This document shows, piece by piece, positions 54,186 through 55,881 of a DNA stretch of 64,000 nt. The DNA is taken from the NCBI GenBank assembly GCA_037310415.1, contig CP147780.1, positions 864,001-928,000 on the forward strand, written 5' to 3'. Each line of letters starts with the position of its first letter. Positions within the stretch are counted from its first letter, which is position 1. A program made the translations under genes and the position numbers. The notes beneath the pieces are model-generated. The model did not search any database, was not told the DNA's origin, and was given only the letters and a program-made list of their open reading frames with translations. Source of the DNA: Candidatus Atabeyarchaeum deiterrae (GTDB lineage: Archaea; Asgardarchaeota; Atabeyarchaeia; Atabeyarchaeales; Atabeyarchaeaceae).

Positions 54186-55006
54186 CTATATCCTTCCTTG
54201 ATGGTTTCTTGGGTTGTTGAGTGATACTGCATTTCCCTGCAAGCATTTCCCTCGTATTCCTATTCTGTAGTGGCAATCGGGGCAGGTATTGTCTATCTGA
54301 TCAATTGCACAATATGCTATGCTCAGTCCACTGCGCTCTATCAAGAGATTGTTGCATATTGGGCAATAAGTATTCTCTCCTGGGTGCCCAGGCACATTTC
54401 CGAGGTAAACGTATCTCAAGCCTTCTTCTAGACCGATCTCCCTTGCTCTTTCCAGAGAGCTGATCGGAGTCTGCTGGGATAGACCAAGTGCCAATGCCTT
54501 GTGTGCAGCATAATATCTTGTGCAGTGCCATGGCACTTCAGCGCCCAGTTCATTTCTCATCCTAGACGCAATCAATCTAAGTATGGTTTCCTTGTCGTTG
54601 ACAGTGGGAATAACCAAAGTGACTACTTCGATGTGTTTCCCATACTTCTTCAATTCTCTCAGATTTCGCCAGACTATTTCGGCATCTACTCCGCAATACT
54701 TCCTTACGGCAATTGCGTCACCTTTTACATTCACACAGAAAGCATCACAGCCACTATTAACTATGAGTCTGAGCGCTTCTAATGTTGAATAGAGATTCGT
54801 TACATAGGTATTGTAAAGTCCCTTCTCCTTAGCTCTTCTCATCACGTCGAGGGAGTACTCGAAAAGAGATGTAGACGGTTCATTGAAAGAGAAGGATGTT
54901 CCATTGGAATGGGATCTCTTTGCTAGACTTACAAGTGTCTCTGGGTCTATGTAATTCGCATTGGAAGGGCTCGGGGGAGATTTGCTGACATCGAAATTCT
55001 GACACC
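54186..55006 (-). CDS. AmmeMemoRadiSAM/PflA-like radical SAM enzyme, exon 2
   Basis: (W)CQNFDVS..SFSFNEPS..VTN..VNVKG..YVYLGNVPGHPGENTYCPIC; frame continuous with exon 1 only after the intron is removed. Confidence 0.88.
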
Positions 55007-55059
55007 TTGCCCGTCAAGATGCAACTTTCCGAAGGATGCACTTTGTCGCATCCTTGACT
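55007..55059 (-). other. 53-nt archaeal bulge-helix-bulge intron in a protein-coding gene
   Basis: ACAU-GCCC-AU|A-GUCAAG...CUUGAC-GGGC-AA|G-GUGU: 4-bp central helix, two 3-nt bulges, flanking helices; splicing gives UGC CCA UGG UGU (CPWC). Confidence 0.9.
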
Positions 55060-55381
55060 ATGGGCATGTGAGATTACACCCGTAGCTCCCCACGGTCAAC
55101 GCCAAGCTTCCTGGCCAGAAATGAAAGAGCGGCTTCTTCTCAATTGGGTTCACGCTCATAGTTGAAATATCGCCGTATGTAACTGAATATAGTGTACCTT
55201 CGACGTTCATCTTAGTTCTACAGAAGCCTGCTTTTCCCTTGTCTATCGTACACCTTCGCTCACAGACGCCACATCTGACCCTTCCCCTTGACAAGCGCTC
55301 GTATAGCGGTGATTCTCTTACCCATTCTCTCTCAGTGAGACCTCTGTCCAAGCCCAAGAGTCTATTGCTCCTAATCTTCAC
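55060..55381 (-). CDS. AmmeMemoRadiSAM/PflA-like radical SAM enzyme, exon 1
   Basis: VRCGVCERRC..GFC, PIEKKPLFHFWPG, GCNLTCP; spliced CDS 322+821=1143 nt (380 aa). Confidence 0.88.
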
Positions 55382-55881
55382 TTCCTGATTATTCTTAGAT
55401 CCTGAAGGATCAGTTCCGCAACCTTGTCGACAGTCTCTCTGATCTCTCTGCTGAGCTCAGCCGAGTACATTTTCAGTTCCGTTATTTCGATCCCGTATAT
55501 GATGATCTTCTTTGGCATTTCGTCGGGGTAGACCGACTTTCCAATTTTTATCATTTCGGGCAAGCCGACATCGTGGGCGGAAGTTGGGTGAAGTGATGTC
55601 TTGACTTTAGTATCGATGTCGTTACCAGTTAATCGGTGAATTCTCCCAGGTGTATCACCTGCCAAAGAGTCTATGAATATGGCCCAGTCGAAGCCCTTAA
55701 CATTGTCAAGAAGAGCTAAGCCGCCGACTCCCCCTTCAACAAGCTCAACCCCTTTGGGCAAACGCGCAGAGCGCAACTTGTTTAAAACGTGTACCCCCAC
55801 ACCCTCGTCTCCAAGCAAAGTATTCCCTATGCCTACTATCACTACCTGTTTCATTTCTATCCCTCGCTTTCTTGGAGTCAT
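55378..55881 (-). CDS. Hydrogenase maturation endopeptidase
   Basis: GIGNTLLGDEGVG, EGG, ID, SAH. Confidence 0.92.
   Translation of the reverse strand: MTPRKRGIEMKQVVIVGIGNTLLGDEGVGVHVLNKLRSARLPKGVELVEGGVGGLALLDNVKGFDWAIFIDSLAGDTPGRIHRLTGNDIDTKVKTSLHPTSAHDVGLPEMIKIGKSVYPDEMPKKIIIYGIEITELKMYSAELSREIRETVDKVAELILQDLRIIRK

Follow-up and report, generated by a model that had tools for sequence, protein, structure and literature searches.

For more than 20 years, no archaeal protein-coding gene other than cbf5 has had a tRNA-type intron confirmed within its coding region (PMC2738675, PMC7714728). The crenarchaeal cbf5 introns (Watanabe 2002; Yokobori 2009, PMC2738675) are short, measuring 16-44 bp, they are bounded by a motif of the bulge-helix-bulge (BHB) type, and their splicing has been shown experimentally. 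A study published in 2020 gave cbf5 as the one further archaeal BHB intron on record and itself added another from Haloferax volcanii, where the HVO_1309 mRNA is also cut by the splicing endonuclease at BHB sites, as confirmed in vitro (PMC7714728). In the Asgard archaea, EndA has been reported as an (αβ)2 enzyme of broad specificity, the latter being linked to a loop insertion, L1 (PMC5829648), and 92-95% of the tRNA genes of Atabeyarchaeia genomes carry introns, often several of them and at non-canonical positions (PMC11291895). Protein-coding introns are mentioned neither in the latter study, whose supplement gives per-KO counts that are 0 for these genes, nor in a 2026 preprint on Asgard tRNA introns (bioRxiv 10.64898/2026.10.13.758758).

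We have examined a stretch of 64,000 nt of DNA from Candidatus Atabeyarchaeum deiterrae (hereafter, the window), in which a gene encoding a radical-SAM enzyme is broken by a 53-nt insert. A first-pass annotation, made from the letters of the sequence, had proposed that a BHB intron splits the CxxxCxxC motif of this radical-SAM mRNA. Our analysis upholds the proposal: nine orthologs with the insert, covariation, selection on the exons and the presence of EndA and RtcB make it highly probable that the insert is a BHB intron, excised from the pre-mRNA by the archaeal tRNA-splicing machinery. Like the cbf5 introns, it would be a short, BHB-bounded intron within a protein-coding region, located in phase 1 inside a codon of a catalytic or cofactor motif, with patchy gain and loss among relatives and a functional protein that requires its removal. 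It differs from the crenarchaeal cbf5 introns in the gene family, in the lineage (Asgard, Atabeyarchaeia), in its greater length of 48-53 nt, in a conserved two-part stem and in the presence of a UAG at the splice site in every copy; and whereas cbf5 splicing rests on experiment, that of the radical-SAM mRNA is deduced here from sequence. Unlike the radical-SAM intron, that of HVO_1309 lies in the 5′-UTR and leaves the coding frame uninterrupted (PMC7714728). With the tRNA introns of Atabeyarchaeia and Freyarchaeia (PMC11291895; bioRxiv 10.64898/2026.10.13.758758) the insert shares the group of organisms and, as may be presumed, the cut rule and the EndA/RtcB machinery, but its substrate is an mRNA, so that nucleotide precision sets the reading frame. 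Taken together, the locus looks like an instance of the cbf5 mechanism in a gene family and a lineage that are new for it, and like part of an apparent genome-wide set. The annotation knew of no report for this gene family, and our literature search, which covered a part of the journals, agrees with it: no prior report of a BHB intron in a radical-SAM gene or in any other Asgard protein-coding gene was found there.

Results

The interrupted radical-SAM gene

In the ORF listing, the radical-SAM gene appears as two broken frames, 55058-55381 and 54186-54845 (Table 1). When the insert is retained, a TAG follows immediately after CCA and the frame is shifted. With cuts placed behind the second base of both bulges, 55059..55007 is lost and CCA-U becomes joined to GG-UGU, in a frame of 1143 nt, or 380 codons, reading ...GCNLTCPWCQNFDVS... 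/ ...GSYGCNLTCPWCQNFDVSK..., to which exon 2 contributes an open frame of 272 codons. The CxxxCxxC [4Fe-4S] motif is present after splicing, as CNLTCPWC. This recomputed frame reproduces the 380-aa ORF with a restored CNLTCPWC that the first-pass annotation had described, and the letters and coordinates it had given for the insert and the BHB elements match the window sequence. Sliding both cuts by 1 nt in the window gene would create a TAG. Exon 1 starts either with the GTG at 55381 or with the TTG at 55357, the latter being the choice of the gene caller, whose product terminates at ...CNLTCP.

Table 1. Features of the interrupted radical-SAM locus and of the predicted BHB fold (window positions)
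Feature	Position	Strand	Remarks
HycI-type hydrogenase maturation protease gene	55378..55881	-	ORF listing; upstream and co-oriented; stop overlaps the radical-SAM start by 4 nt
Exon 1, radical-SAM gene	55060..55381	-	ORF listing and TIGR04337 match; last base is the U of the Trp codon
In-frame UAG across the 5′ splice site	55058..55060	-	would end translation of unspliced RNA after 107 codons
Predicted BHB intron, 53 nt	55007..55059	-	5′ end AG, 3′ end GGGCAA; excision restores frame and motif
Exon 2	54186..55006	-	begins GG-UGU (remainder of the Trp codon and third cluster Cys); stop 54186-54188
hBHBh′ motif	55002..55069	-	predicted cuts between 55060 and 55059 and between 55007 and 55006
Outer helix, 5′ strand ACAU	55069-55066	-	
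Central helix, 5′ strand GCCC	55065-55062	-	
5′ bulge AUA	55061-55059	-	
Intron stem GUCAAG	55058-55053	-	
Intron stem CUUGAC	55018-55013	-	
Central helix, 3′ strand GGGC	55012-55009	-	
3′ bulge AAG	55008-55006	-	
Outer helix, 3′ strand GUGU	55005-55002	-	

The insert is genuine DNA and an artefact is excluded. DNA support, on which the annotation had made its proposal depend, was examined: contigs of four separate studies carry the insert, two of them covering the whole gene without any difference, while in two further studies contigs of 280 nt and 151 nt reach across the insert. Among named records, 'SRVP18_Atabeyarchaeia-1' and the MAG LC30, both Promethearchaeati, come closest; the host, which had been taken for a probable Asgard archaeon from the letters, is one, and its nearest named relative is Atabeyarchaeia-1. 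The neighbours of the gene encode the HycI-type protease and a TrmI-like methyltransferase. In four metagenomic relatives, HycI (PF01750) is likewise found directly upstream of the interrupted gene, with the arrangement of a 4-nt overlap kept. A search of the 2.76-Mb genome revealed no second copy of the insert, the best other match being of 20 nt (E = 0.03), and an origin of the insert as a repeat or a mobile element was rejected on this ground. Membership of an Rfam family was also rejected, as the sole match is a chance one on the opposite strand, with 15.8 bits against a gathering score of 80.

Both exons match one protein profile. On NCBIfam TIGR04337 (AmmeMemoRadiSam system radical SAM enzyme), exon 1 covers profile positions 4-83 and exon 2 covers positions 86-329; the exons are colinear on the profile, with the junction residues alone missing and neither duplication nor loss. 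They score 82.9 and 144.3 bits, respectively, and the simple sum of 227 bits is only a rough guide when set beside the curated cut-off of 220 bits. Exon 2 matches in addition the Pfam family Radical_SAM (PF04055, 43.9 bits). The same genome contains an intact TIGR04337 paralog with 338 bits at G000:C1:2428720-2429709 (G000 being the window's genome). The interrupted copy is assigned to a divergent subfamily, and it need not be essential, because the genome has this better-scoring intact paralog.

The bulge-helix-bulge fold

A canonical BHB had been described at the insert junctions, and each of its elements was found exactly in place. Two 3-nt bulges lie on opposite strands, with the 4-bp central helix GCCC/GGGC between them, and the flanking helices in the window are h (ACAU/GUGU, 4 bp including one G-U) and h′ (6-7 bp). 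The 53-nt intron contains a two-part stem, formed by GUCAAG/CUUGAC followed by AUGCGAC/GUUGCAU. In the fold of a 77-nt stretch, pair probabilities of 0.99-1.0 were obtained for both the central helix and the intron stem, and the canonical hBHBh′ fold (-24.2 kcal/mol) was 1.9 kcal/mol above the minimum free energy (-26.1 kcal/mol), from which it differed only in the register of the outer helix. The fold reached a z-score of -2.9, none of 200 shuffles folding as well, and simple arithmetic puts the chance of fourteen specified pairs in a fixed register at about 1e-6.

The genome-wide scan for BHB motifs between split ORFs that the first-pass annotation had suggested did not come out in its favour. 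Motifs joining open frames of at least 50 codons showed no excess over a pseudo-pairing control, and real pairing gave fewer hits at every stringency. The scan recovered the radical-SAM intron as a high-quality hit and missed the relaxed introns proposed below for cbf5, glyA, valS and rio2. Because real pairing gives fewer hits than pseudo-pairing, a scan based on structure plus open frames cannot count introns, and because there was no excess over the control, a BHB-like fold is weak evidence by itself. We take the case for the intron to rest on homology and covariation.

Orthologs of the insert and covariation of its stem

We surveyed 400 genomes of the phylum, 164 of which contain an ortholog at E <= 1e-55. 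Among these 164 orthologs, a short insert at the site was present, by an open-frame criterion, only in the window's genome, in G002 (LC30) and in G009, which belongs to another family, and the gene of Atabeyarchaeia-1 (G001) is uninterrupted at the site, where it reads CCC-TGG-TGT. The short frame of G037 was rejected as an insert, being due to a 1-nt change in a T run, and so were the short frames of G244, G277 and G315, which are due to contig ends. Exon 1 alone was also searched against a collection of 5.8 billion proteins, using a length window chosen to exclude intact proteins. Eight clusters terminated exactly at ...C-N-[FL]-[ST]-C-P followed by a stop, and the DNA of the clusters was examined. 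The intron-bearing sequences amount to nine distinct ones from at least seven samples, with insert lengths of 53, 52, 50, 48 (five sequences) and 29 nt.

All nine inserts are located at the identical phase-1 site after CCA-U. They all begin with AG, generating a UAG across the splice site (CCA-UAG) in every copy, and they all end with CGGG[C/U]A[A/G]. Applied to each of them, the standard BHB cut brings back the frame together with the motif C-x3-C-P-[W/Y]-C, with CP-W-C in five sequences and CP-Y-C in four, and the spliced frames measure 361-405 aa wherever the contig is long enough. The cluster motif of radical-SAM enzymes is expected to have the form CxxxCx(aromatic)C. The same BHB core is found in the eight other orthologs, the central helix varying between G-C and G-U only. 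The four orthologs of the Tyr type form only two of four pairs in the outer exon helix, which corresponds to the relaxed HBh′ form, so that an enzyme of relaxed specificity would be needed.

The positions of the outer and central helices that lie on the exon side give no covariation signal, because they are fixed by coding. Covariation was assessed in the intron stem (h′), where 49 of 54 cells are paired; in controls with the 3′ partner shifted by 1-3 nt, pairing drops to 15-26 of 54. Stem positions 2, 3, 4 and 6 show 3, 3, 4 and 5 standard pair types, respectively. On this alignment, the intron stem is kept by compensatory changes. The alignment of orthologs that the annotation had called for thus revealed nine inserts at one site with compensatory changes in the stem, together with an intronless sister gene in Atabeyarchaeia-1.

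Splicing machinery and other interrupted genes of the genome

Two EndA proteins, 238 aa and 198 aa long, are encoded in the genome, in the regions of G000:C1:215557-215811 and 625628-625888, and both comprise an N-terminal and a catalytic domain (PF01974 + PF02778). RtcB is present as one gene (G000:C1:982706-984013). The first EndA is most similar to the solved crenarchaeal splicing endonuclease chains 3p1z_B, 3ajv_B, 2cv8 and 2zyz_B, and the second is more divergent; a two-gene EndA fits the Asgard (αβ)2 type.

Several other genes of this genome seem to be interrupted in a similar manner. Removal of 41 nt from cbf5 (G000:C1:395677-395717), where the putative intron interrupts the codon for the catalytic Asp, restores GGTLDPRVTG, the exons corresponding to TIGR00425 positions 6-69 and 71-320. 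In glyA, removal of 41 nt (652709-652749) restores EGWPGERVYAGTKY, with exons at profile positions 3-50 and 52-403, and in valS, removal of 31 nt (457150-457180) restores FPMGIDRNGLPIE, with exons at positions 4-88 and 89-797. In rio2, GVGKE and SDVY are encoded 52 nt apart. A relaxed local search ranked by pair count gave wrong junctions for such genes, and the correct ones were obtained through conserved motifs and profile colinearity. A single locus of the genome lies above the family cut-off for valS. Because its only valS is interrupted, the organism must remove such inserts from mRNA, and the interrupted single-copy valS would be the strongest indirect argument for the removal of the radical-SAM insert.

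We propose the following course of events. In the transcript, the GCCC at the end of exon 1 would pair with the GGGC at the 3′ end of the intron, and ACAU with the GUGU at the start of exon 2, the intron forming a stem of its own; this pairing would leave one 3-nt bulge on each strand, with 4 bp between them. A two-subunit EndA would cleave after the second base of each bulge. RtcB would then ligate the exons (junction GCCCAU-GGUGUC) and probably circularise the 53-nt intron, for which the predicted circle junction is GGGCAA-AGUCAAGG. The mature mRNA would be translated into a 380-aa TIGR04337-like radical-SAM enzyme with CNLTCPWC intact, the predicted junction-spanning peptide being TCPWCQNFDVSK. 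Translation of the unspliced RNA would stop at the UAG across the 5′ splice site and yield a truncated product, a 107-aa fragment without the third Cys, which accords with the earlier claim that unspliced RNA is non-functional. In this scheme, cleavage, ligation, circularisation and splicing efficiency are all read from the DNA letters.

A regulated form of this splicing is speculative: the intron would serve as a checkpoint, and the enzyme would be made according to EndA/RtcB activity or a stress signal, in a parallel, drawn by the annotation, with HAC1 and XBP1. The mRNAs of the latter undergo a non-spliceosomal splicing by IRE1 at cut sites defined by RNA structure, excision changes the frame, and RtcB is the ligase in metazoa. 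The radical-SAM intron would resemble HAC1/XBP1 in these non-spliceosomal, structure-defined cuts and in the change of frame, and it differs from them in that their endonuclease is IRE1 and not EndA, their motif consists of twin stem-loops and their splicing is regulated by stress. The location of the intron in the cluster motif and the UAG in nine of nine orthologs would make unspliced RNA strictly non-productive, a feature that speaks for a checkpoint. However, similar inserts occur in the constitutively needed valS, glyA and cbf5 of the same genome, the proportion of tRNA genes with introns (92-95%; PMC11291895) fits a highly active general removal, and the sister species manages without the radical-SAM intron. 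Hence, we regard regulated splicing as improbable. That tRNAs and housekeeping mRNAs of this genome have many introns of a similar kind speaks for the radical-SAM intron being removed constitutively.

Selection on the exons

We then compared the window gene with those of G002 and G001. In both exons, synonymous sites are saturated (pS 0.77-0.83) while pN is 0.15-0.20, and the intron-bearing pair is as constrained as either of its members versus the intronless gene. By this measure, both exons are under strong purifying selection. The gene has not been dead since the common ancestor, because both frames are still open.

These data bear on the possibility that the gene is a pseudogene, in which case the insert would be the inert scar of an insertion into a redundant paralog, and its resemblance to a BHB would be due to chance. 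The intact, higher-scoring TIGR04337 paralog at G000:C1:2428720-2429709 would be compatible with such redundancy, and chance BHB-like folds are common. Yet both exons have kept an open frame and are subject to purifying selection, even between lineages with saturated synonymous sites, and the start/stop overlap of 4 nt with HycI is retained. The annotation had named gene decay together with orthologous inserts devoid of BHB geometry as the outcome that would speak against it; what we found is that insert, fold and exon frames of full length are all preserved in the nine orthologs, and that the changes in the stem are compensatory. We therefore hold a pseudogene to be very improbable.

Could the insert instead stay in the mRNA? 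Ribosomes might bypass about 50 nt, as in T4 gene 60, or read through the UAG. As in gene 60, a stop codon is located right at the break and is followed by a hairpin, and in the five orthologs with an insert of 48 nt, a multiple of 3, read-through would maintain the frame. For bypass, however, the take-off codon CCA has no matching landing codon (no CCN) before UGU. With regard to read-through, inserts of 53, 52, 50 and 29 nt shift the frame, and 16 extra residues inside CxxxCxxC would break the required spacing of the Cys residues. Moreover, and against both, the Trp or Tyr codon exists only as two halves, which are joined exactly by the BHB cuts. Retention of the insert in translated mRNA is thus scarcely credible. 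Lastly, although gene callers predict two ORFs, the chance that exon 1 and exon 2 give two separate polypeptides that assemble, like the split genes of Nanoarchaeota, is practically negligible, as 54 codons of the exon 2 frame pass after the junction before a first start codon, the GTG at 54845, is reached, which leaves the third cluster Cys without an initiation site, and the aromatic codon would be divided between the pieces.

Discussion

If the radical-SAM mRNA is spliced as we propose, it would constitute the second gene family after cbf5 with full comparative support for a tRNA-type intron in the coding region, and this in those archaea that are most closely related to eukaryotes. Splicing of mRNAs that depends on proteins and not on a spliceosome would then be routine, and essential for gene expression, in at least one Asgard class. 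There is also a practical consequence. Standard gene callers split or truncate genes of this type (here into fragments of 99 aa and about 200 aa), so that metabolic reconstructions would miscount enzymes. In addition, the radical-SAM gene may offer a tractable system to study how introns enter and persist in coding sequences, since a single gene appears to combine gain, precise loss and recurrence at the same site.

As for how the intron arose, the tree unites the three Atabeyarchaeia genes in one clade (100/100), within which G001 and G002 are weakly supported sisters. The introns of the Atabeyarchaeia type can be aligned with one another and have in common an inner AUGC...GCAU helix. The simplest history for this class would be one old intron with a precise loss in G001. 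G001 would have lost the radical-SAM intron and not the splicing system, because its cbf5 is still interrupted. The G009 intron, which is 29 nt long, has a different GC-rich stem, and its gene is located elsewhere in the tree. A clade of Atabeyarchaeia plus G009 is rejected by the AU test (p = 0.011, for a group named after the tree had been seen), and this post hoc result opposes a single origin of all intron-bearing genes. The data on G009 suggest that an intron was gained here a second time, that there was a transfer, or that an ancient intron has been lost many times.

Overall, the radical-SAM intron looks like an old heritable passenger. For tRNA genes, it has been proposed that introns split the DNA targets of homing elements and are kept by selection for that reason. 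An extension of this idea to mRNA, according to which BHB introns in Asgard protein genes are selectively kept because they split the targets of homing elements at the most conserved motifs, and the Atabeyarchaeia have an obligatory, genome-wide mRNA splicing of the tRNA type shaped by conflict with mobile elements, is speculative and in our judgement rather unlikely.

The few bases around the intron site form a hot spot, other insertions having been observed there. The ortholog of G029 contains an intein of about 500 aa with a LAGLIDADG-like motif, placed between the Trp and the third Cys (...CNFTCPW/C...N/CQNW..., slashes marking the intein boundaries), 2 nt downstream of the intron site. 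The split gene of G040 had been considered as a case of a long intron or of a trans-spliced gene, and both were rejected: in G040 and in a second metagenomic sequence, an 8.1-kb element that encodes a tyrosine integrase and has a 15-nt direct repeat at its flanks is inserted 5 nt downstream of the intron site. Across Asgard lineages, three kinds of insertion, namely the putative BHB intron, the intein and the integrase-bearing element, are found within about 8 nt of this one site.

Other interrupted genes in the Candidatus Atabeyarchaeum deiterrae genome

In the genome that carries the interrupted radical-SAM gene (G000), inserts were located inside conserved motifs of valS, which is single-copy, glyA and rio2, and the protein profiles of valS and glyA are exactly colinear across the insert. 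The cbf5 gene of this genome contains a bulge-helix-bulge (BHB) insert within the codon of the catalytic Asp, at a position identical to that of the crenarchaeal cbf5 intron. A break at the same profile position is common to Atabeyarchaeia-1, LC30 and G040, a further genome of the same phylum; cbf5 is continuous in G009, which belongs to another Asgard family, and in G029.

Positions of inserts, variants and associated genes (G000, genome containing the window; L handles, fetched DNA stretches)
Feature	Location	Strand
valS insert, 31 nt	G000:C1:457150-457180; L081	+
glyA insert, 41 nt	G000:C1:652709-652749; L080	+
rio2 insert, 52 nt	about G000:C1:771192-771243	+
cbf5 BHB insert, 41 nt	G000:C1:395677-395717; L079	+
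Intact TIGR04337 paralog	G000:C1:2428720-2429709	+
HycI-type protease gene	window 55378-55881	-
Intein-containing ortholog, G029	L016:16-2286; L088:767-830	+
Insertion in G040 ortholog	L066:656-8751; G040 C6:751500-761300	
Tyrosine integrase, 449 aa	L066:6686-8035	-
Frame change, G037 ortholog	L017:2235-2240	
Replaced segment	window 54902-55058	

Other insertions and variants in orthologs of the radical-SAM gene

The G029 ortholog is an 882-aa frame with an intein that contains a LAGLIDADG-like motif. Within the cluster motif the intein separates Trp from the third Cys (...CNFTCPW/CVSPDT...FLVSN/CQNWEISK), and the BHB-intron site is 2 nt upstream of its insertion point. In G040 the ortholog is split by an 8.1-kb insertion that encodes a tyrosine integrase with HNH-associated repeats; a 15-nt stretch of the gene (codons QNCGI) is present at both ends of the insertion as a direct repeat. 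The gene is intact in G316, a congener of G040, and P0009, a protein sequence from another metagenome, shows the same read-through from the gene into such an element.

G037, a one-contig genome, has an ortholog with a 1-nt frame change in a six-T run that directly precedes the motif's second Cys. This change could be a genuine frameshift or a sequencing error in the homopolymer. In contigs of a diverged relative (runs X6 and X8), 155 letters of the window are exchanged for 152 unlike letters, which suggests that another strain exists whose insert is about equally long but has a different sequence.

Subfamily and genomic neighbourhood

The intact paralog scores 338 bits with TIGR04337, above the cut-off, versus a sum of about 225 bits for the interrupted gene, and by this comparison the interrupted copy appears to belong to a divergent subfamily, labelled by JGI as pyruvate formate lyase activating enzyme. 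Directly upstream of the interrupted gene lies a HycI-type hydrogenase maturation protease gene whose stop overlaps the radical-SAM start. This adjoining order is conserved in Atabeyarchaeia-like contigs (L071, L072, L074, L075), a hint that the radical-SAM subfamily is functionally connected with hydrogenase maturation.
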